Of a DNA stretch of 64,000 nt, positions 1-15,808 are shown one piece after another (position 1 is the stretch's first letter; each line of letters opens with the position of its first letter). The translations under genes were made by a program, and so were the position numbers. The notes beneath the pieces are model-generated. The model was given only the letters and a program-made list of their open reading frames with translations. It had not been told where the DNA came from and made no database searches. Where the stretch lies: contig CAZQHM010000021.1 in the NCBI GenBank assembly GCA_964593355.1, forward strand, positions 1,565-65,564. The letters run 5' to 3'. The stretch is from an uncultured Myxococcales bacterium (lineage in GTDB: Bacteria > Myxococcota_A > UBA9042 > CAIXZC01).

Positions 1-1455
1 CAGTGTAAGGACAACAATGCTCTGACCTTGGATTTATGTGACGCGCCGACGTTGACATGCAAAAACGAGCCTATAGATACGAATTGTGTCGATGATGGCG
101 ACTGTGCAGACGGCTCGAAATGCATCAACTTCAATTGCGTCGCCGATGGCCTTCAGCCTCAGAAAGATTGCGACAACCAACTCGACTGCGTTGCTGCTTT
201 CGGCCCTTGCGGCGATCAGGATTTTGGAGCGATCTGCGTTGATGGCAAGTGTGACCTGTCTGCTGCCCACGGTTGCTGTGACAAAGGGCTCAGGATTGTG
301 CTGGCGGAGGAGACACTAAAACCGAAGTTGGACTGGCAGCTACAGAGGCTGGCTAACGACTGGCGCGCTGAGGGAGCCTGTGCTGCGGTGTTTTATGTCA
401 ACGAGGAGACTGCGCCGGCAACTATACAGAAACGGCTTCGGGCATACCTCGAGTATGCACGCAGCAAGCCGGGTTTGGTGGGAATTGCTGGACTGTTCTT
501 GGTGGGCAGGATTCGCCCGTTCGCCGTAGAAGTAACTAATGGCAGTGGTGAAACCAATTGGGCTATGACAGACCAAGTATATATGGCGCCTGAAGGTCCA
601 TGGAAAGAGGTTACTTCATCTAGAAGGAGTTGGACCCTTAGTTACTTGACTAAGGATGCAACAGATAAGTATCCATTGGCTGTTGGGCGCATATTGGTGC
701 CAAAGAACATTGGAGGGGAGATAGCTGTTCTGTCTCAATATTTTAGTAAATTACATGCATTTCGGTATGGTGGCAAGGCTGAGTGGAAAAGCGGAAATGG
801 TCGTGCAGTTCTGTTTTCGCCGTATGACTACGCGTATTGGCAAGATCAGCTAGCTGGTATGAAGGCCTTGTTTGGTATTACCACCGTCAATGATCAAGCG
901 GTCTGCTTCGGTACTGGGTCCATTGAGAATATAGATATTGTGCAGGCGCCTGCATCTACAAAGGCTAAACTATTTAACGTGCTGGCACAGCCCTATTATT
1001 GGATGACGGTGGAGAGCCACCTTAATGTTAAGGAATGGGATCTTGCAATTGGAACAGTGACGGCTGAGGAGGTCAAGAGCAGCGCACAGGTGGGTCCAAA
1101 CTTCTTCTGGCATCAGACCTGCCATTCTGGTGAAATTGCCAGGCTGAACCAGGAAGGATACTGGGAGTGGGAAGACGATGCCTATGCGCTGAGGCTTTTG
1201 GGGGTTGGAGCCAACAGGGGCCTTGCGGTTGTGGCAAGGGGTTCGACTGGCCGCGATAGTTGTCACCATGATGTGTTTTACAAGGCATTAGCGAATGGCA
1301 AATCAATCGGGGATGCTCTACGTGAGAAATTACATGTTACGGTAAGAAAGCTGCGTCTGAATGAATTTGACAAGTGTGATATATTTAAGTATTTCGGCTT
1401 TACGACGATTTTATTCGGGGATCCGTTCCTGGTCCCTGGTTCGGTGGAGGAATAA
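1..1455 (+). CDS. 5'-partial Cys-rich secreted protein with possible clan-CD (caspase/legumain/gingipain-like) cysteine-peptidase-like C-terminal domain
   Basis: Frame is open from nt 1, so the gene continues upstream of the window. The N-terminus has CTxDxC / CxDDGDC-type Cys-rich repeats like the N-terminal repeats of the giant gene. The C-terminal part has 'LFLVGRIRPF...TDQVYMA' (resembles C25 'LLVGDHKDIP...SDQVYG') and 'NFFWHQTCHSG' (hydrophobic strand-C-x-S-G, resembles the legumain/caspase catalytic Cys motif). The peptidase call rests on weak motif similarity only. Confidence 0.4.
   Translation, partial: QCKDNNALTLDLCDAPTLTCKNEPIDTNCVDDGDCADGSKCINFNCVADGLQPQKDCDNQLDCVAAFGPCGDQDFGAICVDGKCDLSAAHGCCDKGLRIVLAEETLKPKLDWQLQRLANDWRAEGACAAVFYVNEETAPATIQKRLRAYLEYARSKPGLVGIAGLFLVGRIRPFAVEVTNGSGETNWAMTDQVYMAPEGPWKEVTSSRRSWTLSYLTKDATDKYPLAVGRILVPKNIGGEIAVLSQYFSKLHAFRYGGKAEWKSGNGRAVLFSPYDYAYWQDQLAGMKALFGITTVNDQAVCFGTGSIENIDIVQAPASTKAKLFNVLAQPYYWMTVESHLNVKEWDLAIGTVTAEEVKSSAQVGPNFFWHQTCHSGEIARLNQEGYWEWEDDAYALRLLGVGANRGLAVVARGSTGRDSCHHDVFYKALANGKSIGDALREKLHVTVRKLRLNEFDKCDIFKYFGFTTILFGDPFLVPGSVEE
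1274..1371 (+). repeat. Direct repeat copy A (3' end of gene 1..1455); about 93% identical to 2859..2952
   Basis: 'ttttacaaggcattagcgaatggcaaatcaat.gg.gatgctct.cgtgagaaatt.catgttacggt.agaaagctgcgtctgaat' is shared. Copy A encodes 'VFYKALANGKSIGDALREKLHVTVRKLRL'. Confidence 0.75.
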
Positions 1456-1456
1456 C

Positions 1457-2791
1457 ATGGGAAGCAGGCAACAAGCTTGGTGTGTTTTCGCTGTGCTGGG
1501 CTCTGTGTTGTTCAGTGCTTCCTGCGGGAGTGCCGGCAATATCGTAGCTGCGGACGCTGTGGATCTTGTGAGCAAGGATGGGGTTGAGGTCACTCCGCCC
1601 GTTGATTCCCGGGATGAACACGACCTTGCAGACCCATGCAAGGGCCCGTGCGGAGACTTCGAGTGCGGTGCGGATCCGCTGGGATGTGGGGTCTCTTGTG
1701 GAGTTTGCGAGGTTGGGGAGTGCTCAAACGGGTACTGCACATGTACAGGTAGTTTTACTGTTTGTGGTGACAGTTGCTGTGCCCCAGGTGAAAAGTGCAT
1801 AAGCCAGGGGCATTGCTGCCGGCCTAACTGCTTGGGAAAGTCGTGCGGTGGTGATGGTTGCGGGGGAACCTGCGGCAGTTGTGACGGTCCCGGTACCTGC
1901 ACAGCCGCAGGCGTCTGCGATTCAGTCACATGCGGTGGTGTCGTCTGCCCGATGCACCCGCAGAAGGATTTTGTGGTGTTCTGTAACTCTCGGGACTACT
2001 GCGAGTACCTTTCGTTCTCTGGGGACGAGACTCAGAGTGAGATCTTCGTCCCACCAGGCAGCTTTGAAATGGGGCTCAGGGCTGGAGACTGCATGTTCGA
2101 AGAACTGGTTGACATCACCACGATTTGTACTTACGCACAGCCATCACATGTTGTTACGTTTGCCAAGGGGTATTTTGTTGGCAAATATGAGGTCACAATA
2201 GCGAGATACAGGCAATGCATTCTTGGCGGGTTATGCGCAGAGTTCGATGAATCGGGTTCGATTTGTTTTGATTCGTGGGACGATAATATGCAGCCAATCT
2301 ACATTTACGATGTTCTTCCGGCAGACGCCCCGGCAGTGTGCACCGGGCGGGAAGCGGCAGCGGACTTCTGTTTCTCAATCGGTGCCAGACTGCCGTCGGA
2401 GGCAGAGTGGGAGATGGCGCTCAGGGGTCCGGAGTACAACGCGTACTTTCCCGGGCTGGACTTGGAGCATCCATGCGGGCAGATAGCTTGCTGCGAATGC
2501 GGGGACGGGAGACTCCTGCCCGCTGGCGCAAGTCCGGGCGACGTCTCTGCAACCGGTGCCCGAGACATGATTGGGAATGCAACGGAGAGAGTTCTTGATT
2601 GTTGGCACGATGGGTACTCTGGAGCACCCTCGGATGGGACACCGTTCGACTGGGATTGTGAGAGCGGTTGGCTGGTCGGGCGGGGGGGGGCGGTTGTCAC
2701 TCCGGCGGACCGATTGTACCCGTTCATGCGTGGAGTAAGGTCCTCCTCCGCCCACGGTGGGGTGGGGTTTCGGTGTGTTCGCGAACTGTGA
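1457..2791 (+). CDS. Lipoprotein with Cys-rich N-terminal region and C-terminal formylglycine-generating-enzyme (FGE/SUMF1)-sulfatase-type domain
   Basis: ATG at 1457 lies 2 nt after the stop of the upstream gene, with GGAGG 9 nt upstream. The signal and lipobox are '...VLFSASC'. FGE-domain motifs present: 'GYFVGKYEVT', 'RLPSEAEWEMALRG', 'GNATERVLDCWHDGY', 'RGGAV', 'GVGFRCVREL'. The N-terminal region contains 'CLGKSCGGDGCGGTCGSCDGPGTC'. Confidence 0.75.
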   Translation: MGSRQQAWCVFAVLGSVLFSASCGSAGNIVAADAVDLVSKDGVEVTPPVDSRDEHDLADPCKGPCGDFECGADPLGCGVSCGVCEVGECSNGYCTCTGSFTVCGDSCCAPGEKCISQGHCCRPNCLGKSCGGDGCGGTCGSCDGPGTCTAAGVCDSVTCGGVVCPMHPQKDFVVFCNSRDYCEYLSFSGDETQSEIFVPPGSFEMGLRAGDCMFEELVDITTICTYAQPSHVVTFAKGYFVGKYEVTIARYRQCILGGLCAEFDESGSICFDSWDDNMQPIYIYDVLPADAPAVCTGREAAADFCFSIGARLPSEAEWEMALRGPEYNAYFPGLDLEHPCGQIACCECGDGRLLPAGASPGDVSATGARDMIGNATERVLDCWHDGYSGAPSDGTPFDWDCESGWLVGRGGAVVTPADRLYPFMRGVRSSSAHGGVGFRCVREL

Positions 2792-2823
2792 GAGGTTCCG
2801 GAGCCGGGGGAGCGTTTCGGGGA

Positions 2824-2952
2824 CATTCGGCGTGCAGGCACCCGCATCTACAGAGGTCTTTTACAAGGCATTAGCGAATGGCAAATCAATTGGTGATGCT
2901 CTGCGTGAGAAATTTCATGTTACGGTTAGAAAGCTGCGTCTGAATAGATCTG
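2824..2952 (+). pseudogene. Internally deleted remnant of a paralog of gene 1..1455 (direct repeat copy B)
   Basis: 2859-2952 matches 1274-1371 (~93% nt identity) and encodes 'VFYKALANGKSIGDALREKFHVTVRKLRL'. The preceding 2824-2848 ('gtgcaggcacccgcatctacagagg', VQAPAST) matches 940-964 of gene 1. About 330 nt of the gene-1 interior are missing between the two blocks. No plausible start or full-length frame exists. Confidence 0.5.
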
Positions 2953-3098
2953 ACATTTAGGGGAAGAAAACCTGGGGACGGAGGACGATGACTCATTTGA
3001 CAGATGATTGCTTGTCAGCCGTAACCAAGTCCCACTCGACCTGAGAGAACCGCCCCCATCGGCTTCACCTCTCACCAAAATGAGGCCACGGTTTTCGG

Positions 3099-3743
3099 CT
3101 ATATGGAGCTGACCGCAGTGAAGGTCTTCCCGCTGCCCGTCGCCATCTGAACCAAGGAACGGGGGTGCCCGGCCGCAAGCGACTGTTCAAGATTTGTGAT
3201 GGCCTCGAACTGGCAGTCACGCAGGTTGGACTTCTCAAGCGGAGGCAGGTGGGCAAGTCGGCCCCTCAGAGTCGCACCCTGCGCAAGCCAATCCCGCAAG
3301 GTCTCGGGTCGATGGAACGAGAAAACCCGCCGAGACCGAGGTTCCGGGTCACGTAGGTCTCGGAAGAAGGTCTCGATTCCGGTGCTCTCGTAGCAGAAAG
3401 GGAGAGGAAACTGGGCGTGGGGGATGTGGGAGGGCAGCCCCGTGACATACAGCCCCGATTGCTCGGCAACGCCGGAGAGAGTTGCCCCAACCTTCTTGGC
3501 CTCCACAACACCAACGGCGGCCCGGTCCACAAACAGCAGGTAGTCTGCAGTGCCTCCCTTGACCGGAAACTCTCGCACCGCTACTCCAAGGCTGGCCCCG
3601 AGGTTGACCGAAGCGTAGTCCTGGACAGCCCAGCCGGATAGCTGAAGCTGCCTGTCGATCTGGATGCGTGCTTCCTGCTCAGGAGTCATGCGTAATACTC
3701 CACGTAGATGTCGGACGGTAGCAGGGCATGGGCGGGAGTGCAA
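3099..3743 (-). pseudogene. hsdR: Truncated type I restriction enzyme R subunit (HsdR) N-terminal fragment, ending just after helicase motif I
   Basis: 'MTPEQEARIQIDRQLQLSGW' matches the HsdR N-terminal family. 'ADYLLFVDRAAVGVVEAKK' is the nuclease-like core. 'QMATGSGKTF' is the Walker A / motif I, followed immediately by a stop after 214 aa (full length is expected near 1000 aa). No continuation is found in other frames. Confidence 0.6.
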
Positions 3744-3769
3744 GGATGGAATGTGAAGTCCAGTTTGAC

Positions 3770-3815
3770 CCTACACGGCCGCTGGGTTGATCGAGATATC
3801 TGAGCGGCCGTGTAG
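3770..3815. repeat. Palindromic element copy 1: 13-bp inverted arms around a 19-nt loop containing GATCGAGATAT
   Basis: 'CTACACGGCCGCT gggttgatcgagatatctg AGCGGCCGTGTAG'; a second copy is at ~15614 with compensatory stem changes. Confidence 0.6.
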
Positions 3816-4485
3816 GAATGCAAAGGGGGCCGTCGCTGCATCGGACACGACGCTGTACCGTCTCTTGCTGACGCTGCTCCACACGAACTTCGCTAAGAAG
3901 AGGCTCGGGCCAAAGCGAGAGGTCTCATACACCGTCTTCGATGAGGCCAACCGGCACTTCGTCTCCAACCTCCCCCTCGACCCGCTTGTTTCCGCCTCCG
4001 CTGCGGACTCTCGGCCCCAAGGCCTTCCACACGGCCAACACGGCTTTCTGCCCCAACAAACCCCAAACCCACAATCTGCCCCCTCCTCAGGAGTTGGGCA
4101 AAGCCTAGCCCTAACACGGCGGGTCCCTGGTCCTTCCCCCCGCCCAAGACAGCCTGGAGCATACATCCCCGATATTGGAGTTAACTACCCTGGTGCTCCA
4201 GGAACCTATTGTTATAGATTCTATATTATGGTTAGCGTGTGTGATGTAAATGGAGGCAATTGCACGTCGGACTATGAGTATGGCTATTTTGTCATGGATT
4301 GGGTGGTGTAGGGCCGACGAAGCAGACACATCGGCTTGTCGCTCAACCACTGGGAATTCAGCCGACCGGGACATCGTCATTGGAGAAGGACCATGGGAAT
4401 CGATTTAAGAGCCTCGAACCGACTACTTGGGTTCTGCTCTTGCATTTCAGGTTCTAACTGCGTAGCATCGGTGTCGCCTTAGGCA

Positions 4486-7017
4486 GTGTTCGAGGTCATG
4501 GGGGCTGTTATGAAATGTCAATGCTCGACTAAGCCACGGACTATGTGTCGCATTTGTGGTGTTTGGCGATTCGGTTTACGTTGGCGACAGTTGATGGGGC
4601 TTCTTCCTCTGCTGCTCGGCTCGGCAACGTTGGAGGGTTGTCCCTCCTCCTCTGAGACCACGTCATGGGATGTTCTCGAAGCCAGGGGGCAAGGGGACCA
4701 ATGGGACGTTGGGCTTGATGGGACCTTAAGGGAATCCACAAGGGAATCCACCGTCGCTGACACCCTGGAGATGCTGAGCGAGCTTGACTCTCCCCCTGAT
4801 CTTCTCCCCGACCACCTTGACGACGTACCGGTGCCAGATGTCCAACCTCCTGTGGGAGAGTGCTGCATGTCCGACGGAGATTGCGGCGCCAAGGGCCGGT
4901 GTGTCGGCCCTTATCCCGGTGGCGCAGCGGCTCATGGAGTATGCGCCGAAGTGCCTGGTTCACCACGGTGCTATGCTGACTCCGATTGTCCCACCGGTGC
5001 TGCCTGCGAAGGTGCCAACTGGTGTCAGTGCGGCCAGCATTGCGATCCTCCGGCCCTGCCTGGCTGGTGCGTTTCGCCGGATGCGGGATGCTGCGGCTCA
5101 GACGACGATTGCATCGGGACTGGCGACTGCATTCTGGGCCACTGCCTGGGGGTGAGCTTTGTGGGTGGTGGATTCTGCTGGCACGATGCGAATTGCGAGA
5201 GCAACGAGGAGTGTGTTGGTGAGTTCGTGTGCCCCTGTGGATACAGCTGTCCGGTGGATTCAGCTTTGGGGACTTGTCATGCGTTGGGGCCTGACTGCTG
5301 TGAAACTGATGAAGACTGTGACGGCCAGATATGTCTCCGCAAGACCCCTGCCAGCCCCGGTGTCTGCGGTCCCGAACTTGCGCCGGGCTCGTGCTATTCA
5401 AGCCACGATTGTGCGCCAGGGAACGTATGCAACGGTGCTATGATATGTCAATGCTCCGACAACTGTGCGCCGGCCATGGGCTCTTGTGGCGCCTGTTGCA
5501 CGGACAACAGTTCGTGTGAGGAGGGGTATGTGTGCGTGTTGGGGTCGTGCCGGTTGGCCTCACAGGTGCCTCGGTGTTGGCAAGTGAGTGACTGTACACA
5601 CGATCCCAGTTGCAGTGGCGACGGATGTGCAACGCAGTTCGATTGCCAAGGGGAGGTAATCTGCCAGTGCGGTACCACCTGTGCTCACCAGGAAGTCATG
5701 GGCTGGTGCCTACCGCTTGACGTTCAGGGACCAAATTGCTGTGTGGCTGACAGCGACTGCTGGGAAGGAACGGTCTGCGTACAGGGCAAGTGCCTCATTT
5801 CGCCAGCGGGCGGAGCATGCTGGGAGTCCTCCGGCTGCACTGCGGGCGAAGAATGCATCGGTGCCGAAGTGGAACCCTGTGGTCAACACCTGTGGCCCGA
5901 TTTCCTCCCTAAGATTGGCTGGTGCGGCGGAGCAGCCAAATGCTGCGGCACAGATGCCGAGTGTCCAGCGCCATTGGTTTGTGCCGGCCTTGACTCGGGC
6001 GCCGGCCTGTTGGGCCAATGCAGAGCACCGACCGAAGCGACCAATGACTGCTGGACCGACTCCGAATGTGCACAAGGATTCGAGTGCGTCGGAGTGCTTG
6101 CTTGCGGTTGCGACCCACTGTGCGACAAGGAGCAGGTGGGCTTCTGCGAGAAGACCACCTTTGTGCCGTGCTGTGGTAGCGACGCCGGGTGCCAGGACGA
6201 AGAGCGCTGTGTTGGTAACTTGCCGAACAAGCAAAACGGCCGATGCGTGCCGACGCAGGTGGCAGGCCAGTGCTACGAGGACTCGGATTGCGGAAGTGGT
6301 CAATGTGTTGGGGAAACCACTTGCAGCTGTGAATTGGAATGCTCACCTGTGGCAGGTACGTGCACGGCGCAGCCGCAGTGCTGCGAAACCGACGAGGAGT
6401 GCGAAGACGCTGGCGACGTCTGCGCAGCGGGAAGATGTAAAGCGGTCCCACCATACGGAGCCTGCTGGAGTGACCAGGATTGCCCCGCCCCGGGGATTCT
6501 TGAGTGCCTTGGGGCCTTCGTTTGCCCCTGCAACGAATCCTGCAACCAAAACGATCATGCGGGCGTTTGCATGAGTTCCACAGAGACCTGCTGCGGGACA
6601 GCGGCCCAATGCGGTGAAGGTGATTTGTGTCTCCACACCGGGGCCCCCAATTTGCAGGGCCGTTGCTACAGGCCTGCGGAGTACCCAGAATGCTGGAGTT
6701 CCAGTGATTGCGAGGAGGGAGCAACGTGTTGGGATGCAAATGTGTGCGCTTGTGAAGAAGTCGGCTGTGTTCCGAACATGGGAATGTGCCTGACATTTGA
6801 AGCCTGCTGCGAAGGAGATCAGGATTGTCTGAACACCGAAGTCTGTGTGCATCCAGAAGGGCAACCAACGGCCGACGGCACCTGCAAGTCTCTGGTACAG
6901 CCGGGAAGCTGCTGGAATAGCCAGAGTTGCCCAGCAGGTCAAACTTGCCAAGGGGCCAAAGTGTGTCCGTGCGGCGCCCTCTGTCTGGTTGCCGACCAAC
7001 TCGGAACGTGCCAGTAG
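4486..7017 (+). CDS. Secreted Cys-rich repeat protein (~18 repeats of ~45 aa, 'CCxxDxDC...GxCxxGxC' type)
   Basis: An 843-aa ORF. The hydrophobic N-terminus 'LMGLLPLLLGSATLEGC' suggests a signal peptide, so the true start is probably one of the downstream Met codons (about 4543-4594). Repeats include 'CCGSDDDCIGTGDCILGHCL', 'CCVADSDCWEGTVCVQGKCL', 'CCETDEECEDAGDVCAAGRC', 'CCEGDQDCLNTEVCV'. No catalytic domain is recognised. Confidence 0.7.
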   Translation: MFEVMGAVMKCQCSTKPRTMCRICGVWRFGLRWRQLMGLLPLLLGSATLEGCPSSSETTSWDVLEARGQGDQWDVGLDGTLRESTRESTVADTLEMLSELDSPPDLLPDHLDDVPVPDVQPPVGECCMSDGDCGAKGRCVGPYPGGAAAHGVCAEVPGSPRCYADSDCPTGAACEGANWCQCGQHCDPPALPGWCVSPDAGCCGSDDDCIGTGDCILGHCLGVSFVGGGFCWHDANCESNEECVGEFVCPCGYSCPVDSALGTCHALGPDCCETDEDCDGQICLRKTPASPGVCGPELAPGSCYSSHDCAPGNVCNGAMICQCSDNCAPAMGSCGACCTDNSSCEEGYVCVLGSCRLASQVPRCWQVSDCTHDPSCSGDGCATQFDCQGEVICQCGTTCAHQEVMGWCLPLDVQGPNCCVADSDCWEGTVCVQGKCLISPAGGACWESSGCTAGEECIGAEVEPCGQHLWPDFLPKIGWCGGAAKCCGTDAECPAPLVCAGLDSGAGLLGQCRAPTEATNDCWTDSECAQGFECVGVLACGCDPLCDKEQVGFCEKTTFVPCCGSDAGCQDEERCVGNLPNKQNGRCVPTQVAGQCYEDSDCGSGQCVGETTCSCELECSPVAGTCTAQPQCCETDEECEDAGDVCAAGRCKAVPPYGACWSDQDCPAPGILECLGAFVCPCNESCNQNDHAGVCMSSTETCCGTAAQCGEGDLCLHTGAPNLQGRCYRPAEYPECWSSSDCEEGATCWDANVCACEEVGCVPNMGMCLTFEACCEGDQDCLNTEVCVHPEGQPTADGTCKSLVQPGSCWNSQSCPAGQTCQGAKVCPCGALCLVADQLGTCQ

Positions 7018-7026
7018 CGATCGGAA

Positions 7027-7311
7027 TTATCCAACCAGATGCGCTATGAAGCCCGTCTGCCCGCCGCTGCGCACCACCTCCATTCTCCTTGAGTGGCGGG
7101 CCACTATCTCGTCCACGATGGAGAGACCGAGGCCCGTGCCGTGGTCCTTCCTGGTGAAGAATGGTTCGAACAGCTTCGACACGTCATCTTGGGCAATTCC
7201 CGGGCCGTTGTCCCACACAGCCAGAAATGCCTCCCCAGGTCTGCTCTCCACGACCACCCGCACAAGGCCCCCGTGGGAACCCGTGCACATCCTGAATGCG
7301 GGCAGGAACAC
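7027..7311 (-). pseudogene. Histidine-kinase HATPase_c C-terminal fragment (94 aa)
   Basis: 'FLAVWDNGPGIAQDDVSKLFEPFFTRKDHGTGLGLSIVDEIVARH' covers the G1/G2 boxes of a histidine-kinase ATPase domain. No HisKA or sensor region exists upstream in any frame, so this is a remnant. Confidence 0.5.
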
Positions 7312-7397
7312 CGTCTCGTTTGACTTCCTTTAATGCGTTGACAAAACCACCTCCGGTTTTCACAATCCGCGGGCTTGGTCTGCGGGAGGCGTGGTCT

Positions 7398-8804
7398 ATG
7401 GAGTTGACCCTTGACTGGCTGTTGGACAAGAGAGTTCACCTGCTTGGTATCGGCGGCATCGGTGTGAGCGGCGTTGCTCGTCTGCTTGCCGCCCGAGGTG
7501 TGGCCGTCTCTGGGTGCGACGTGCGTGAGTCGTCCATCATCGATGCGCTTCGCTCCGAAGGTATCGATGTGGCAATAGGGCATCGCCCCGAGCATGTGGA
7601 CCAGAGCGATGTGCTGGTCTACTCCACGGCGGTTCCCGGAGTGAATCCGGAGCTTGCATACGCCCGGGAGAAGGGCCATCCACTCTATCACCGGTCGCAT
7701 CTCCTGGGGGCCCTCTCTCTGGCCCACCTGCGCTCGGTGGGCATCACGGGCACCAACGGAAAAGGGACGGTCTGTGCCATGCTCACCCATATTCTCAGGG
7801 TGGCAGGCCTCAACCCGTCGTTCTTCGTTGGAGCGTTGTGCCCCAACCTGGGTACCAATGCACTGGCTGGCTCTGGAGACCTCTTCGTGGCCGAACTCGA
7901 TGAGTCCGATGGTTCCCTGGTGAACATCCGGCCCGACTTCGCCCTGGTCAATAACCTGGAGCTGGACCATCTCAACTATTACCGGGACCTGGACCACACC
8001 ATAGAGACGCTGGTCACCTTCATCGACCAGATGCCGCAACAGGGCGTTCTCTTCCTCAATGGGGATGACCAGGGCACGTTGGCCCTGGCGGCCCGGCTCA
8101 AGGGGCGCAGTTGCGTCCTCTTCGGCACCGGAGAGAACTGCAGCGTTCGTTGTGTGCCAGTAGCGGTCAGTGACGCAGGGACGGATTTCTCCGTCACGCT
8201 CGCCCGCCCCAATGGCCCGCAAGACCTGGGCATCTTCAGGCTCAACGTCCCCGGGCTCTACAACCTCGAGAACGCAGCGGGCGCACTGGCAGTGGCCCTC
8301 CACCTTGGAGTGGACCCCGCCGCTGCCAAGGAAGCGCTGGCCAGCTTCAAAGGGCTGCTGAACCGATATACCCTGGTCGAAGCCGCAGGGCGGAAGCTGG
8401 TCAAGGATTATATGTCGCACCCTACGGGGATACGGAAAGTGCTCCAGACGGCTCGTGTTGGCACCTCCGGGCGCCTCATCGCAGTGTTCAAGCCATACAG
8501 ATACACCATGATCAACTACCATGCGGAGAATTACGCCGCTGCCTTCGCCAACGCTGACGAAGTGGTCATCACCCGCATGTGGGAGGCTGGAGAGGACCCC
8601 ATCCCAGGTGTGGATACCCCATGGCTTGCCGACCAGATAGCCAAGGCCGGCGTCAAGGTTACATACATAGATCAGATGGATTCTATCACGGACCATCTGC
8701 TTGCAACTCAGCAACCAGGCGACTGCGCCGTCTTCTTTGGCGGCAATGACATGTTCGAACTTGTGGACGAACTGGCATCCAGGTATCAGTCGCTGACACA
8801 ATAG
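7398..8804 (+). CDS. murC: UDP-N-acetylmuramate--L-alanine ligase (MurC; Mpl-type ligase not excluded)
   Basis: N-terminal Rossmann 'HLLGIGGIGVSGVARLLAARG'; Mur ligase P-loop 'GITGTNGKGT'; 469 aa. Confidence 0.85.
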   Translation: MELTLDWLLDKRVHLLGIGGIGVSGVARLLAARGVAVSGCDVRESSIIDALRSEGIDVAIGHRPEHVDQSDVLVYSTAVPGVNPELAYAREKGHPLYHRSHLLGALSLAHLRSVGITGTNGKGTVCAMLTHILRVAGLNPSFFVGALCPNLGTNALAGSGDLFVAELDESDGSLVNIRPDFALVNNLELDHLNYYRDLDHTIETLVTFIDQMPQQGVLFLNGDDQGTLALAARLKGRSCVLFGTGENCSVRCVPVAVSDAGTDFSVTLARPNGPQDLGIFRLNVPGLYNLENAAGALAVALHLGVDPAAAKEALASFKGLLNRYTLVEAAGRKLVKDYMSHPTGIRKVLQTARVGTSGRLIAVFKPYRYTMINYHAENYAAAFANADEVVITRMWEAGEDPIPGVDTPWLADQIAKAGVKVTYIDQMDSITDHLLATQQPGDCAVFFGGNDMFELVDELASRYQSLTQ

Positions 8805-8812
8805 GCAATCAT

Positions 8813-10159
8813 ATGTACTCAGTGGAAGGCAAGTCGTTCAGCGTGCTGGGTCTGGCCCGGTCGGGCCTGGCTGCGGCCAACTATCTGGCCCGAAACGGGG
8901 CCGATGTCTTCGTCAGCGACCGGGCTCCTGCCCAGAAGCTGCCCTTGGACAAGCTTGACCCTCGGGTGACCGTTTGCGCCGGCGAGGAGAAGGTGCGCCA
9001 GGGAGACGTGGTCGTCATCAGCCCAGGAATCAAGCCTGGAACCCCCGCTCACTCCATGGCACACGAGCTTGGTAGCGAGGTCATCTCGGATATTGAACTG
9101 TTCTATCGGCTCTCTCCGGCTCCCGTACTTGCGGTGACCGGGACCGATGGCAAGTCGACCACAACGGCCCTGCTTGGCGAGCTGTGCGCCGCTGCGGGAT
9201 TCCCGGTCTTTGTGGGAGGCAACATCGGTGTGGCCTGCATGGATGGCCTGAAGCAGCTTTCCAAAGAAGGCCTGGCGGTTCTGGAAGTGAGCTGCTTCCA
9301 GTTGACCCACTGCTACCAGCTGAGACCCAGGGTGGCCTTGGTGACAAACATAGCCGAAGACCACGTGGAGTATCACGGCAGCTTCGAAGAGTATGTTGAG
9401 GCGAAGCGGAGGATTTTCCAGAGCATGGGGGCCGGCGATACCCTGGTGCTCAACGGAGACGATGAACTGCTGGCAACCTGGCAAACCCCCGCCGGCTGCC
9501 GACGAAGAACCTTCGGATGGAGTCAGGGCGGCGAGGCCTGGTGCGACGGCCAGAGCATATTCTTGAAGCGCGATGGCGAGTACCGCCGGCTTGTGGATCT
9601 TGATCGGCTGAAGCTGGTTGGGCGACATAACGCCGAGAACGTCATGGCGGCGCTGCTCTGCATCGATGGCCTGTTTGCCGATGCTTTTGACCTGGTGGAA
9701 GCCATCAAGGCCTTTCCGGGTCTTGAACACCGCATGGAATTCGTTGCCAAGGTGAACGGGGTGGACTTCTACAACGACAGCAAGGCAACAAACCCCCACG
9801 CCGCCATGGCCGTGGTCAACTCGTTCCCCGGGAACTTCGTCGTGCTGGCCGGCGGGTACGAAAAAGGCAGCGATTTCGGCGAGTTGGGGCGCCTCATTGC
9901 CGTGAAGACAAGGGCAGCGGTTCTCTATGGTGCCACCCGTGAGCGGCTGGCAGCGGTGATTCCTCAGGGCCACCCGGTCTTCCTCGTGGAGACGCTGCAG
10001 CAGGCTATTGCCAAGAGCCTCGAGCTGGCGCTGCCCGGTGATAGCGTGGTGCTGGCCCCGGCCTGTGCCTCTTTTGACCAGTTTTCGGATTTTGAAGAGC
10101 GTGGAAGGAAATTCAAGGATTGGGTTCGCCAATTGAACAATGGCGGGGAGAACAAATAG
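8813..10159 (+). CDS. murD: UDP-N-acetylmuramoylalanine--D-glutamate ligase (MurD)
   Basis: 'VLGLARSGLAAANYLARNGADVFVSD' N-terminal fold; 'VTGTDGKSTTTALLGEL' P-loop; 448 aa. Confidence 0.85.
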   Translation: MYSVEGKSFSVLGLARSGLAAANYLARNGADVFVSDRAPAQKLPLDKLDPRVTVCAGEEKVRQGDVVVISPGIKPGTPAHSMAHELGSEVISDIELFYRLSPAPVLAVTGTDGKSTTTALLGELCAAAGFPVFVGGNIGVACMDGLKQLSKEGLAVLEVSCFQLTHCYQLRPRVALVTNIAEDHVEYHGSFEEYVEAKRRIFQSMGAGDTLVLNGDDELLATWQTPAGCRRRTFGWSQGGEAWCDGQSIFLKRDGEYRRLVDLDRLKLVGRHNAENVMAALLCIDGLFADAFDLVEAIKAFPGLEHRMEFVAKVNGVDFYNDSKATNPHAAMAVVNSFPGNFVVLAGGYEKGSDFGELGRLIAVKTRAAVLYGATRERLAAVIPQGHPVFLVETLQQAIAKSLELALPGDSVVLAPACASFDQFSDFEERGRKFKDWVRQLNNGGENK

Positions 10160-11182
10160 ATGAACGAAGTGATTGATGAACTCAGGGACAAAGCGGAACG
10201 TGAACTGGCGCTTGTCCACGATGAAGGGGCCCTGCGCCTGGTGGAGATAACATACCTGGGCAAGAAGGGCTCGGTGCAGGGGCTTATGACCCAGATGAAG
10301 GCCCTCTCCCCCGAGCAGAGGCCGGCCTTCGGCAAAGAGGTCAACGAGCTGAAAGACTTTCTTGAGGAGCGGGTTGATACCCTGCGAGCGCAAATGCGCG
10401 AGCGTGAACTTCTCAAGGAGGTGATGGACCCCTACCTCGACCCAACGCTGCCCGGCATAAAGCCCTCACTGGGTGGGCTTCACCCGGTGACGGTTATCCA
10501 GCGCAAGGTTGAGGCGGTGTTCAGGTCTATGGGATTCATCATCCCAGACTACCCCGAGGCGGAATCGGAGTACTTCAATTTCGAGGCCCTGAACATTCCG
10601 TCGGACCACCCGGCCCGAGACATGCAGGATACCTTCTGGCTGACCGACGGCCATCTGCTCAGGACTCACACATCTCCGGGGCAGGTGCGGGCCATTAGAA
10701 CCTTCAAGCCGCCAGTCAGGGTGCTGCTTCCCGGCAAGGTCTACCGTTACGAGGCCGTGGACGCCTCCCACGAGCACACCTTTCACCAGGTGGAGGGGCT
10801 GCTCATCGACCGGGATGTCTCGGTGGCTCATCTGATTCACTCCATGAAGACGCTGGTGAGGGAGGTCTTTGAAAGGGACGTTACAATCAGGCTGAGGCCC
10901 GGCTACTTCCCCTTCGTAGAGCCCGGCTTCGAACTGGACATGGTCTGTTCGGTTTGCGGGGGCAAGGGGTGTTCGGTGTGCAAAGGCAGCGGATGGGTGG
11001 AGGTTCTTCCTTGCGGTCTGGTGCACCCCAACGTGATCAGGGCCGGCGGACTGGATCCAAACGAGTGGCACGGGTGGGCCTTTGGCCTTGGCCTGAGCCG
11101 CCTGACCATGATGCGCTACAAGATCTCTGGCATCAGAAATCTTATGGCCGGAGACTTGAGATTCTTGGGTCAGTTCATCTAA
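10160..11182 (+). CDS. pheS: Phenylalanine--tRNA ligase alpha subunit
   Basis: 'FNFEALNIPSDHPARDMQDTFW', 'GLLIDRDVSVAHL', 'AFGLGLSRLTMMRY' are class II aaRS PheS motifs; 340 aa. Starts 1 nt after the murD stop. Confidence 0.95.
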   Translation: MNEVIDELRDKAERELALVHDEGALRLVEITYLGKKGSVQGLMTQMKALSPEQRPAFGKEVNELKDFLEERVDTLRAQMRERELLKEVMDPYLDPTLPGIKPSLGGLHPVTVIQRKVEAVFRSMGFIIPDYPEAESEYFNFEALNIPSDHPARDMQDTFWLTDGHLLRTHTSPGQVRAIRTFKPPVRVLLPGKVYRYEAVDASHEHTFHQVEGLLIDRDVSVAHLIHSMKTLVREVFERDVTIRLRPGYFPFVEPGFELDMVCSVCGGKGCSVCKGSGWVEVLPCGLVHPNVIRAGGLDPNEWHGWAFGLGLSRLTMMRYKISGIRNLMAGDLRFLGQFI

Positions 11183-11206
11183 TCTCGAATATGTGAGGCA
11201 TATGCC

Positions 11207-13603
11207 GTGAAGATATCTTGGAATTGGTTGAATAGACATGTGGATTTATCGGGTCTGGACCCTCACGAAATCGCTCATCGCTTCACCATGTCGGTGGCGG
11301 AGTTGGATGGGGTTGAGGAGTTTGGCCGAAGCTACAATGAGGCGGTGGTTGCCAGGGTGCTGGAGATCGACGTTCATCCTCACGCCAGCCAGGTTCGCAT
11401 AGTGAAGCTGGACACGGGGCGGGGCACGGTGTCGTTGGTCTCGGGGGCGCCAAACCTGAGGGTTGGTATGCATCTGCCCTACGCTCCTCCTGGCGTTCAG
11501 TTGGAGGGGCTTGACGGCAAGCCTTTGGTCTCAGTGGTGACAATCCGGGGTGTCGAGAGCCCCGGCGTGGTCTGTTCTGAGAGGGAGCTGGGCATCTCGG
11601 ACAATCACGATGGGGTGATGGATATTCCGGAGGGGGTGCCCGTTGGCACGCCTCTGGCCGAATGGGCGCCGCTGCACGACTTCGTCCTCGAGTTGGACAA
11701 TACGTCCATAACCCACAGGCCTGACCTGTGGGGTCACAGAGGCATAGCCCGGGAGATTGCTGCGCTTGTGGGTCGCACCCTGCGGCCCTTCTCCATGGAG
11801 ATACCCCAGGGGGTTCAGGACCCGCTGGTGGTGACGGTTGAGGATCCTGATCTCTGCCCCAGGTATACGGCTTTGGTGTTCGACAACATCAAGGTAGCGG
11901 AGAGCCCGGTCTGGCTCAAGTGCATGTTGAGCATGGTAGGCGTGCGGCCTATCAACAACGTGGTAGACCTGACCAACTTCGTGATGCTCGATGTGGCCAA
12001 TCCCACCCACGCCTTCGACGCTCGGTTCATTGCCGGCCCCAGCATCAACGTTCGCAGCGCGCAGCCGGGCGAGGAGTTGACCACGCTGGATGGTCAGGAG
12101 CGGACTCTGGTGCTCTCCGACGTGGTCATTGCCGATGCGGAGAAGGGCATTGGGCTTGGTGGGATAATGGGGGGCGAGAACAGCCAGATTCTGCCTGACA
12201 CCAGCAGGGTGGTGCTGGAATCGGCCTCGTTCAATCCCTCGGCAATCCGTCGCACCTCGTCCAGGTTGGGTCTGAGAACCGATGCTTCTGTGCGCTTCGA
12301 GAAGGCACTGGAGCGTGAGATGCCCTTGCAGGCCACGGCTCTGTTTGCCCGTCTGCTGCCCGAGCTGGCCCCCGGGGCAGTGGTGGCCAGCCGCCTCTAC
12401 GATGTGGCGGCGCCTGCCCCGGCGCCCGTGGTGCTGGACGTCAAGCCGTCCTGGATTCGCAGGAAGCTGGGCGTTGACCTTGACGATGGGACCATGGCCG
12501 GGATGCTCGAGAAGATCGAGTTTGTGGTTGAGCGTTCCCACGACCGCTTCTTGATTCACGTTCCGCCCTTCCGGGCCACGCGGGATGTAACAATTCCCGA
12601 GGATATAGTAGAAGAAATCGGCCGTCTCTATGGTTACGACAACATTGTGCCCGTGCCCATCCTGGCTCCTGTTGAGCCGCCACCTCGCATAGCGGCCAAC
12701 GAACTCTCACCCGTTGTGGCGGACACCCTTGTGGGCATCGGCTATCAGGAGATCCTGTCGTACAGCTTCGACTCGGCGCAGTTCGCTGCCACCATGGGTT
12801 ACGACCTGTCCGAGGCCCCAGAGCTTCGCAACCCCATCTCGGCGGATATGCCCGTCATGCGCCGCTCGTTGCTTCCCAACATGCTTCTTGCGGCAGGCCG
12901 AAACGCCTTGGAATGGGACCAGTTCCGGCTCTTCGAGATGGGGCGCGTCTTCTTCACTGATATGGAGGGCGAGATTCCGTACCAGGAGAGGCGCGTAGCA
13001 GGCGTTCTTTACGGGCGCCACGAAGACAACTTCGACATCTATCGGAAGCTTCGGGGGGATGTAGAGCTTCTGCTTGGCAGGCTACACCGGGGCGCCCCCA
13101 AGTTTGTCGTGCCCGATGCCATGGCCAACATGCCCTGGACCGTGCCAGACAAGGCCAGGTCCATCGAGGTGGCAGGCAAGCTGGTTGGCTACGTCTCGCT
13201 GCTCAACCCTCTGGTTAGAGACAAGATGAAGGTTCGTGGCGCCATGGCCCTCTTCGAACTCAACCTCGAGGAGTTGTTCGAACTGCCCGAGGTGGTCCCG
13301 GTCTTCCAGCCGCTTCCACGGTTCCCCTCCATCGAGCAGGACATCAGCGTCATCGTGGAGTGCGAGATGCCCTTCGATGAAGTTGAGAGGGCCATTACCC
13401 GGCGCGGGACCGAACTGCTCAACGGATGTGCCCTCGTGGCTGTCTTCAAGGGGGCGCCAATCCCCGATGGGAAGAAGAGCCTCTCGTTCAGACTTGAGTT
13501 CCGCAGCCCCGAACGCACCCTCACCGATGACGACGTACAGCCGGTAATGTCCGACATTCTCGCCGGGCTGAGGGCCGACGTGGGCGGCGACATCCGCAGT
13601 TGA
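11207..13603 (+). CDS. pheT: Phenylalanine--tRNA ligase beta subunit
   Basis: 798 aa. N-terminal tRNA-binding 'MKISWNWLNRHVDL'; B3/4 and B5 regions; C-terminal FDX-ACB 'EQDISVIVECEMPFDEV'. Confidence 0.95.
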   Translation: MKISWNWLNRHVDLSGLDPHEIAHRFTMSVAELDGVEEFGRSYNEAVVARVLEIDVHPHASQVRIVKLDTGRGTVSLVSGAPNLRVGMHLPYAPPGVQLEGLDGKPLVSVVTIRGVESPGVVCSERELGISDNHDGVMDIPEGVPVGTPLAEWAPLHDFVLELDNTSITHRPDLWGHRGIAREIAALVGRTLRPFSMEIPQGVQDPLVVTVEDPDLCPRYTALVFDNIKVAESPVWLKCMLSMVGVRPINNVVDLTNFVMLDVANPTHAFDARFIAGPSINVRSAQPGEELTTLDGQERTLVLSDVVIADAEKGIGLGGIMGGENSQILPDTSRVVLESASFNPSAIRRTSSRLGLRTDASVRFEKALEREMPLQATALFARLLPELAPGAVVASRLYDVAAPAPAPVVLDVKPSWIRRKLGVDLDDGTMAGMLEKIEFVVERSHDRFLIHVPPFRATRDVTIPEDIVEEIGRLYGYDNIVPVPILAPVEPPPRIAANELSPVVADTLVGIGYQEILSYSFDSAQFAATMGYDLSEAPELRNPISADMPVMRRSLLPNMLLAAGRNALEWDQFRLFEMGRVFFTDMEGEIPYQERRVAGVLYGRHEDNFDIYRKLRGDVELLLGRLHRGAPKFVVPDAMANMPWTVPDKARSIEVAGKLVGYVSLLNPLVRDKMKVRGAMALFELNLEELFELPEVVPVFQPLPRFPSIEQDISVIVECEMPFDEVERAITRRGTELLNGCALVAVFKGAPIPDGKKSLSFRLEFRSPERTLTDDDVQPVMSDILAGLRADVGGDIRS

Positions 13604-15541: not shown

Positions 15542-15613
15542 GGCTTGGGCCGGAGGTAAACCACTGCTCGCCATTCTCGTCCCCCCTTCGACTCGTCCCT
15601 GGCCTCGCTCAGG

Positions 15614-15658
15614 GTACACGGCTGCTGGGGGGATCGAGATATGTGAGCAGCCGTGTAC
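15614..15658. repeat. Palindromic element copy 2
   Basis: 'GTACACGGCTGCT ggggggatcgagatatgtg AGCAGCCGTGTAC'. It has the same loop core as copy 1, and the stem differs by compensatory changes (c/g->g/c outer pair, c-g->t-a inner pair). Confidence 0.6.
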
Positions 15659-15808
15659 TTCTGCCCGTGAGGCGTGGTGGCACTCAGGGCTGCGTCGCTT
15701 GAGCCCTATAGGGCTGGACGCATCATCGGCGTCGGCGATTCCCTTGACTTCCACAGGCGTTTTTGGCTTCCTTGCATGGTTTGGGTCCCTTTGAGCTGGA
15801 GGTTGCTT

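Follow-up and report, generated by a model that had tools for sequence, protein, structure and literature searches.

Four gene remnants upstream of murC in an uncultured Myxococcota-like bacterium: probable scars of ordinary insertion and deletion

Introduction

In an uncultured Myxococcota-like bacterium, what broke the genes that precede the cell-wall gene murC, and does the imperfect direct repeat found among them serve any purpose? We address these questions in a stretch of DNA of 64,000 nucleotides (nt), called the window here in its full length. In the window, a zone of 6 kb upstream of murC holds intact genes for cysteine-rich (Cys-rich) secreted proteins side by side with pieces of a type I restriction gene (hsdR), of a histidine-kinase gene and of two secreted-protein genes. 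A preliminary description had seen here a zone of gene decay and rearrangement, into which secreted Cys-rich genes had been inserted or duplicated with collateral deletions, and whose direct repeats could still mediate excision or duplication. That observation is real, and the zone is an ordinary one of decay and rearrangement that involves no new mechanism. The four remnants upstream of murC are quite probably ordinary scars of insertion and deletion, in which acquired secreted-protein modules were trimmed by illegitimate deletions to leave non-functional debris.

Results

The direct repeat and the remnant of a second gene 1

The left part of the zone holds two adjacent intact genes, gene 1 and gene 2, followed by a short stretch that repeats parts of gene 1. 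Positions are those of the window, which lies on contig L001 (MEGAHIT metagenome contig k141_80660 of ENA ERZ27257504, 65,871 nt; contig position 1784 is window position 1).

1 to 1455, forward strand: the 3' 484 codons of gene 1 (full open reading frame, ORF, at 413-3238 of the contig)
940 to 964, forward strand: block A1 in gene 1 (VQAPASTK), counterpart of 2832-2856 in the remnant
1270 to 1372, forward strand: direct-repeat copy A, inside gene 1, amino acids (aa) 881-914 of 941
1457 to 2791, forward strand: gene 2, FGE-like, a 444-aa secreted protein or lipoprotein whose N-terminal part is Cys-rich and which carries an FGE-sulfatase domain
2832 to 2962, forward strand: gene-1' remnant, two in-frame blocks of a diverged second gene-1 copy, cut at both ends

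The direct repeat around the FGE gene had been described as about 93% identical between 1274-1371 and 2859-2952, which is essentially right; we refine it to 1270-1372 and 2853-2955, where a repeat finder gives 93 of 103 identical positions (blastn E 3.8e-35) and the longest perfect run is 32 nt (1276-1307 and 2859-2890). A further 25-bp block that matches 940-964 is also real and in frame, with 22 of 25 positions identical (by our own estimate, about 3e-5 matches as good would be expected by chance between these two regions), but it lies at 2832-2856 and had been placed 8 nt too far left, at 2824-2848. Both blocks are collinear and in the reading frame of gene 1, and the remnant lacks exactly the 309 nt (103 codons) that separate them in gene 1, which bears out the proposal that copy B and the 25-bp block form an internally deleted remnant of a gene-1 paralogue. 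The remnant represents only aa 761-768 and 881-914 of the 941 residues of gene 1. Lost are everything 5' of codon ~761, the 103 internal codons with the invariant Cys of the family, and the last ~27 codons with its GDPF motif. A candidate upstream extension seen in a tblastn alignment (RSRGSVSGTFG against ARGSTGRDS / GSIENIDI) has ~37% nucleotide identity and was taken as chance. No gene-1' remnant accompanies the gene pair in the two other lineages that carry it (contigs L010-L012 and L013-L014).

Over 39 aligned codons, copy B differs from gene 1 by 7 synonymous and 2-3 non-synonymous changes (proportions of differing sites pS 0.24 and pN 0.03), a split expected under neutrality with P ~0.004 (our own binomial calculation, taking about a quarter of sites as synonymous). 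Since the changes are mostly synonymous, copy B did not arise recently from the present gene 1 and drift afterwards. It is instead part of another gene-1 homologue, one that was under purifying selection before being cut down and that arose by an old duplication, as a paralogue, or came in a second acquisition. The direct repeat exists because this second, diverged copy once followed the pair of gene 1 and gene 2. We regard the 103-nt repeat as a by-product and not a device.

Gene 1 and gene 2 form a conserved pair

Gene 1 starts 1371 nt before the window and encodes 941 aa in full, in which a signal or membrane anchor is followed by Cys-rich repeats over ~550 aa and then by a C-terminal domain (C-domain) of ~385 aa. 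No Pfam or NCBIfam model matches the C-domain, and its family comprises only 12 proteins in an exhaustive HMMER search of 1.84 billion representatives, two of which share the architecture of gene 1 (P0122, 946 aa, 42% identity; P0123, 917 aa, 29%). An AlphaFold model of the C-domain from a 9-sequence alignment (pLDDT 66, pTM 0.69) finds as its best folds in the PDB gingipain R (1cvr; probability 0.96, E 2e-3), RgpB and many caspases. The family has an invariant Cys (C..SG, nt 1120-1122) and an invariant C-terminal GDPF motif, and a His-containing strand (ESH) is also present. The model agrees with the invariant Cys in CxSG and the ESH strand, and we tentatively suggest that the C-domain may have a gingipain/caspase-like fold.

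Residues 192-442 of gene 2 match the FGE-sulfatase family of Pfam (PF03781, E 1.6e-26). A gene with this domain stands directly 3' of a gene-1 homologue in the two other lineages as well, with spacings of 2 nt and 40 nt; in the window the gap is 1 nt and the Shine-Dalgarno sequence of gene 2 (GGAGGA) lies within the last codons of gene 1, so the two are predicted to be a translationally coupled pair. The surroundings of the pair are a phage-type integrase and small unknown genes in L010, and an HU gene in L013. Adjacent in three lineages with unrelated neighbourhoods, gene 1 and gene 2 make up a conserved two-gene module (window 1-2791, with L001 413-3238 for the full gene 1; L010 6459-10756; L013 151-4303). 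Gene 2 was therefore not inserted between the repeats, as had been supposed when it was taken for the unit that they frame. Some clan CD cysteine peptidases are fused or linked to FGE-sulfatase domains.

The other three remnants

To the right of the gene-1' remnant lie three more gene fragments, where three remnants in all had been claimed; the piece at 4168-4311 had been missed, and the total is four.

3099 to 3689, reverse strand: hsdR', 196 codons from the 5' end of a gene for a type I restriction subunit R
4168 to 4311, forward strand: fourth remnant, the final 48 codons, stop included, of a gene for a ~250-aa secreted protein, with homology ending abruptly upstream of 4168
4510 to 7017, forward strand: intact gene for an 835-aa Cys-rich lipoprotein-like protein, 15% Cys overall
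7027 to 7311, reverse strand: HK', the 94-aa 3' tail of a histidine-kinase gene

The hsdR' fragment begins at the normal Met start of its family (MTPEQEARIQID...) and is 60-73% identical, over ~90% of its length, to HsdR proteins of many phyla. It matches positions 11-195 of 768 of the NCBIfam EcoAI-type HsdR model and 233-452 of 1123 of PRK11448, and contains the PD-(D/E)xK nuclease region (HSDR_N match; ADYLL...VVEAK aligned to PDB 3h1t). Helicase motif I (GSGKT, Walker A) is kept, and the ORF ends six codons later: the fragment closes with ...GSGKTFTAVSSI*, where homologues read on ...TAVSFIYRLIKFANAKRVLFLVDR, and its TAG stands at the Tyr codon of FIY in the homologues, in the middle of the first RecA-like domain. 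In none of the three frames does the homology continue through the 136 nt before the next feature, and both the rest of the superfamily 2 (SF2) motor (motifs beyond I, Helicase_C) and EcoEI_R_C are absent from the fragment. The earlier account of an hsdR N-terminal fragment that stops right after motif I is thus accurate. A tblastn search of the 64-kb window for the missing parts, as had been proposed, found no match to the HsdR C-terminal part, hsdS or hsdM (HsdS and HsdM queries from contig L028).

Homologues of hsdR in other metagenomes are often broken just after motif I. On contigs L028-L031 (e.g. L028 5426-8174) a frameshift leaves a 212-aa ORF that overlaps the ORF with the rest of hsdR, which is followed by hsdS and hsdM; this remaining ORF has 723 aa in L028 and 603 aa, or is further split, in L029-L031. 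A more decayed hsdR locus stands on L032. We considered a truncation hotspot after motif I in HsdR, given the many ~200-aa matches, and rejected it: the cases inspected were the frameshifts with the rest present (L028-L031) and the decayed locus (L032). The excess of short HsdR matches probably reflects candidate selection.

The ORF at 3787-4311 looks spurious but for its last ~50 residues. These match P0133 (249 aa, with a signal peptide; E 1.4e-18), the sole protein found in that database search, whose C-terminus is ...PDIGITYPGAPGTYCYRFYVMVSVCNADGSSCTSDYEYGYFTMNWVV against ...PDIGVNYPGAPGTYCYRFYIMVSVCDVNGGNCTSDYEYGYFVMDWVV in the window, and 4168-4311 has 79% nucleotide identity over 145 nt to L023 2154-2297, a match that ends at the stop codon. 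Upstream of 4168 the ORF sequence is unrelated and there is no match to the ~250-aa family. With homology limited to the last 48 codons, 4168-4311 is the 3' fifth of a gene that has lost its 5' four-fifths. There is a weaker match to a 253-aa protein of L007, whose gene adjoins a Cys-rich gene and a kinase gene. On L023 (701-2808) the ~250-aa family occurs as tandem paralogues (302 and 249 aa) followed by a gene for a 147-aa Cys-rich lipoprotein, an order echoed in the window by the fourth remnant and then the 835-aa gene. After a lipoprotein-like signal, the 835-aa protein itself is a series of ten modules, 66-81 aa long, that all begin with CC and contain ~12 Cys apiece; it has no Pfam or NCBIfam match.

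HK' matches positions 23-106 of the 111 in the HATPase_c profile, and no others. The G1 (DNGPGI) and G2 (GTGLGL) boxes are present; the HisKA domain with its H box and the N box were not found in HK', and in-frame stops lie upstream. We asked whether the N box is hidden in another frame upstream of 7311, and there was no Pfam signal in the frame tested. HK' has no well-spaced Shine-Dalgarno sequence. It had been described as a bare HATPase_c fragment of a histidine kinase, and that is what it is, with only the part around the G1 and G2 boxes left. What does not fit the earlier reading is the direction of the cut: the truncated end of HK' faces murC and not a Cys-rich gene.

Composition separates intact genes from fragments

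GC content at third codon positions (GC3) differs along the zone as follows.

Core genes: GC3 0.72-0.77, with murC, murD, pheS, pheT and aspS at 0.72-0.76
hsdR': GC3 0.71, native-looking
HK': GC3 0.76, native-looking
Gene 1: GC3 0.50, foreign-looking
Gene 2: GC3 0.60, foreign-looking
Remnant of the ~250-aa protein gene: GC3 0.44, foreign-looking
835-aa Cys-rich gene: GC3 0.62, foreign-looking

The zone thus alternates foreign-looking intact genes with native-looking fragments. Cysteine content is not the cause of the low GC3, because a native Cys-rich region has a GC3 of 0.78: this is the N-terminal part (~900 residues of Cys-rich repeats, 25-29% identical to the N-terminal half of gene 1) of a single 8701-aa ORF at 25166-51271 on the reverse strand. 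In L010 and L013, too, the pair of gene-1-like and FGE genes is lower in GC3 than its neighbours, so that the module falls below its surroundings in all three lineages. Foreign GC3 in the Cys-rich genes together with native GC3 in hsdR' and HK' agrees with foreign acquisition and collateral native loss. The earlier proposal that secreted Cys-rich genes were inserted or duplicated here with collateral deletions therefore holds in outline, given the foreign GC3 of the intact genes and the native look of hsdR' and HK', but not in its choice of gene 2 as the unit framed by the repeats.

Independent assemblies and relatives

Each junction that was checked is also covered by one or more contigs from other assemblies or assemblers, and the aligned contigs are 99.9-100% identical to the window.

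L020 (ERZ27257508): window 2206-3067, 1 mismatch
L002 (Logan SRR8476232): window 1278-2888, 100%
L022 (Logan SRR8476232): window 2861-5865, 100%
L027 (ERZ27257508): 5' part of murC, HK' and 3' part of the Cys-rich gene, with an identical 94-aa HK' ORF

Among the contigs found, no relative carries the fragments as conserved mini-ORFs; outside the window they turn up solely on contigs that match it at 99.9-100% identity along the shared stretches. Related genomes with conserved short ORFs would have spoken for functional genes, and we accept the earlier view that the fragments are true truncations.

What stands upstream of murC differs among relatives. Contig L016, a short one whose MurC is 80% identical over 106 N-terminal residues, reads ddl, cspA (opposite strand) and murC, and neither ddl nor cspA is present anywhere in the 64-kb window. 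Relatives with ~55% MurC identity (L005, L007) have a gene for a ~1000-aa Cys-rich secreted protein directly upstream of murC. We tried to reconstruct the ancestor from synteny with these two and gave it up, as they are too distant. Since the genes differ among relatives, the stretch upstream of murC is variable in the group and has repeatedly held Cys-rich genes; the position is a recurrent site of variation.

Borders of the zone and REP-like palindromes

3770 to 3816, no strand: REP-like (repetitive extragenic palindrome-like) palindrome of 47 nt, its perfect 14-bp stem enclosing a loop of 19 nt, situated ~80 nt 5' of the start of hsdR'
15613 to 15660: second copy, loop nearly identical, stem differing by a compensated change
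7398 to 8804, forward strand: murC, which opens the conserved core murC-murD-pheS-pheT and bounds the zone on the right

The 47-nt palindrome has the form ACACGGCYGCT-N19-AGCRGCCGTGT, and the copy at 3770-3816 folds as RNA at -30 kcal/mol (z = -5.7). Contig L001 begins inside a third copy, its positions 1-72 being the reverse complement of 15558-15629 at 96%, and there are thus at least three copies on the contig, each of ~47 nt; their stems measure 13-14 bp, and the 19-nt loop, GGGNNGATCGAGATATNTG, is conserved. Within the window, 4 matches to the core pattern stand against 0.18 expected, and the element has no Rfam match. With copies at the contig start and at 3770-3816, the block of gene 1, gene 2, gene-1' and hsdR' is bracketed by two REP-like copies. 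A weak 24-residue match to DDE_Tnp_IS66_C (L001 71-142; E 2.7e-4, below the gathering score) lies where the contig ends, 270 nt upstream of the start of gene 1 and 1.6 kb to the left of window position 1; this could be either one more remnant or one end of an insertion sequence (IS).

To the right of the zone come murC, murD, pheS and pheT (7398-13603, an unusual gene order) and then ordinary chromosomal genes. MurC is 53-61% identical to MurC of metagenome-assembled genomes labelled uncultured Myxococcales or Proteobacteria. No tRNA genes were found across the window, no Rfam family matched in window 1-9000, and a promoter and terminator scan of 2700-4600 gave nothing informative.

Discussion

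The history that these remnants suggest would run as follows. The native region upstream of murC would have held hsdR, probably with hsdS and hsdM, and a histidine-kinase gene. The module of gene 1 and gene 2 would have arrived twice, or once and then been duplicated in tandem, and a second foreign block, with the gene for the ~250-aa protein and the 835-aa Cys-rich gene, would also have been acquired, which makes at least two acquisitions. Several illegitimate deletions (non-homologous or at microhomology) could then have taken away most of the second module and at least the 3' three-quarters of hsdR, along with hsdS and hsdM if these were present; the gene for the ~250-aa protein would have lost its 5' four-fifths and the kinase gene its 5' part. 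The sequence item ALTERNATIVES accompanies this account of the four fragments. Bacterial pseudogenes are rapidly removed, according to PMC2916853.

Several points weigh against this history. A gap of 9 nt separates the end of HK' from the stop codon of the foreign-looking 835-aa gene, an oddly tidy junction between native and acquired DNA, and HK' may have arrived together with the block of the 835-aa gene. Both the native start codon and the whole nuclease motif survive in hsdR', and a 196-aa product could be expressed from it. If the left block is an insertion, the remainder of hsdR could lie beyond the left end of the contig, although no hsdR sequence stands in the 412 nt visible there. The GC3 of the short fragments (94 and 48 codons) is noisy, and with no relative above 80% MurC identity that has a long flank, the ancestral arrangement and the order of events are inferred and not observed.

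Beyond ordinary scarring, it is also conceivable, if rather unlikely, that the zone records the turnover of a rare, horizontally moving module, in which a Cys-rich gingipain/caspase-like protein is translationally coupled to an FGE-like lipoprotein (the fold of a Cys-modifying enzyme), and of which two diverged, selected copies once stood here. Should the FGE-like protein serve to mature or regulate its peptidase-like partner, the two would make up a secreted protease-maturase system not described before, and were that true, the REP-like palindromes that bracket the block could mark its mode of capture. A family so small (12 representatives among 1.84 billion) with a conserved FGE-like partner may merit separate study.

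Might the direct repeats instead be an active RecA-dependent substrate, at which excision or amplification of a 1583-bp unit with gene 2 produces on/off or copy-number variation in the population? A length of ~32 nt is about the minimum for efficient homologous recombination, and the 32-nt perfect run common to both copies makes excision physically possible. The Logan k=31 contigs also break exactly at this shared run (L002 1278-2888; L022 from 2861), ending in a 31-mer that both copies hold. However, a de Bruijn graph breaks in this way at any shared 31-mer, so these ends are not evidence of excision; every contig recovered over the repeats has the full arrangement, none has the deletion junction, and no excised or amplified form is among them. 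The recombinant would also cut gene 1 before its invariant GDPF and drop the conserved partner gene 2, which makes it a loss-of-function product and not a switch. We consider such recombination improbable.

That the fragments are functional mini-proteins, namely a stand-alone PD-(D/E)xK nuclease (hsdR') and a small HATPase_c-like protein (HK'), seems a shade less probable again. Gene callers list both as ORFs, and hsdR' has its native start and a D...EAK nuclease motif that aligns to PDB 3h1t. But hsdR' stops (TAG at the Tyr of FIY) midway through the first RecA-like domain, HK' lacks the N box needed for ATP binding as well as a well-spaced Shine-Dalgarno sequence, and no diverged homologue of equal short length and context was found for either; the short HsdR matches elsewhere are contig-end partials or frameshifted genes with the rest present.

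We give very little credence to gene-1' as a silent donor cassette that varies the C-terminal region of gene 1 by gene conversion, in the manner of pilS, vls and msp2 pseudogenes. Functional pseudogene donors are known in Anaplasma, as stated in PMC2789410, and gene-1' is promoterless and partial, lies in the same orientation near an expressed gene and keeps its frame across both blocks. There is only one such cassette, though, and its differences are mostly synonymous (7 against 2-3), so that gene conversion would alter almost nothing in the gene-1 protein; moreover, gene 1 is identical in the independent contig L002 over the segment covered, and the module has no such cassette in the two other lineages. 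Metagenome mis-assembly, a strain chimera joined at the repeats, might be suspected of a MEGAHIT contig that has repeats in the region and ends inside a repeated palindrome, but it is largely refuted, the checked junctions being spanned by contigs of other assemblies and assemblers (99.9-100% identical where aligned), and the chance of it is minimal. Neither active recombination, a silent cassette, mini-proteins, mis-assembly nor the diversity-generating retroelement (DGR) discussed below has positive support.

If the zone is ordinary scarring, as we think, four called ORFs are debris and should be flagged in annotation as pseudogene fragments: the 61-67-aa ORF at 2757-2960, the 196-aa "ResIII", the 94-aa "HATPase_c" and the 174-aa ORF at 3787-4311. 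The zone is then a small, dated example of Cys-rich secreted modules entering a Myxococcota-like chromosome and being pruned from it.

Comparison with known systems

An imperfect direct repeat of ~100 nt that adjoins an FGE-sulfatase-domain gene recalls a DGR, in which template and variable repeats stand by a gene of FGE or C-type-lectin fold. Here, in contrast, the repeat is in gene 1 and not in the FGE domain (the repeat finder gave no partner for the 3' end of gene 2), its changes are mostly synonymous, and its mismatches are not adenine-specific: the ten are T/G, G/C, C/T, G/T, A/G, A/T, A/T, G/A, A/G and T/C, and no choice of strand or direction makes them all adenines. We rejected a DGR on this mismatch pattern. 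There is no reverse transcriptase among the large ORFs scanned, which cover part of the ORFs in the window.

The C-domain of gene 1 resembles the clan CD cysteine peptidases (gingipain C25/caspase fold) in its model, its invariant Cys and its His-containing strand. It differs in having no Pfam or NCBIfam match, and with pLDDT only 66 and a fold E of 2e-3, its membership of the clan is tentative. Like the EcoAI (type IB-like) HsdR of type I restriction-modification systems, hsdR' has the N-terminal nuclease region and the Walker A motif, but amounts to only about a fifth to a quarter of the protein. In intact type I loci such as L028, hsdR clusters with hsdS and hsdM, and a single small additional gene separates the latter two, whereas the window is without hsdS and hsdM.

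The zone as a whole can be compared with the clusters of pseudogenes or gene remnants in variable chromosomal regions, known as scars of genomic islands and from the deletional bias of bacterial genomes. The zone in the window has no integrase, tRNA gene or clear IS element, only the weak IS66_C-like trace and the REP-like palindrome, but it shares with those clusters several abruptly truncated genes that are interleaved with atypical intact genes, border a housekeeping block and are absent from relatives.

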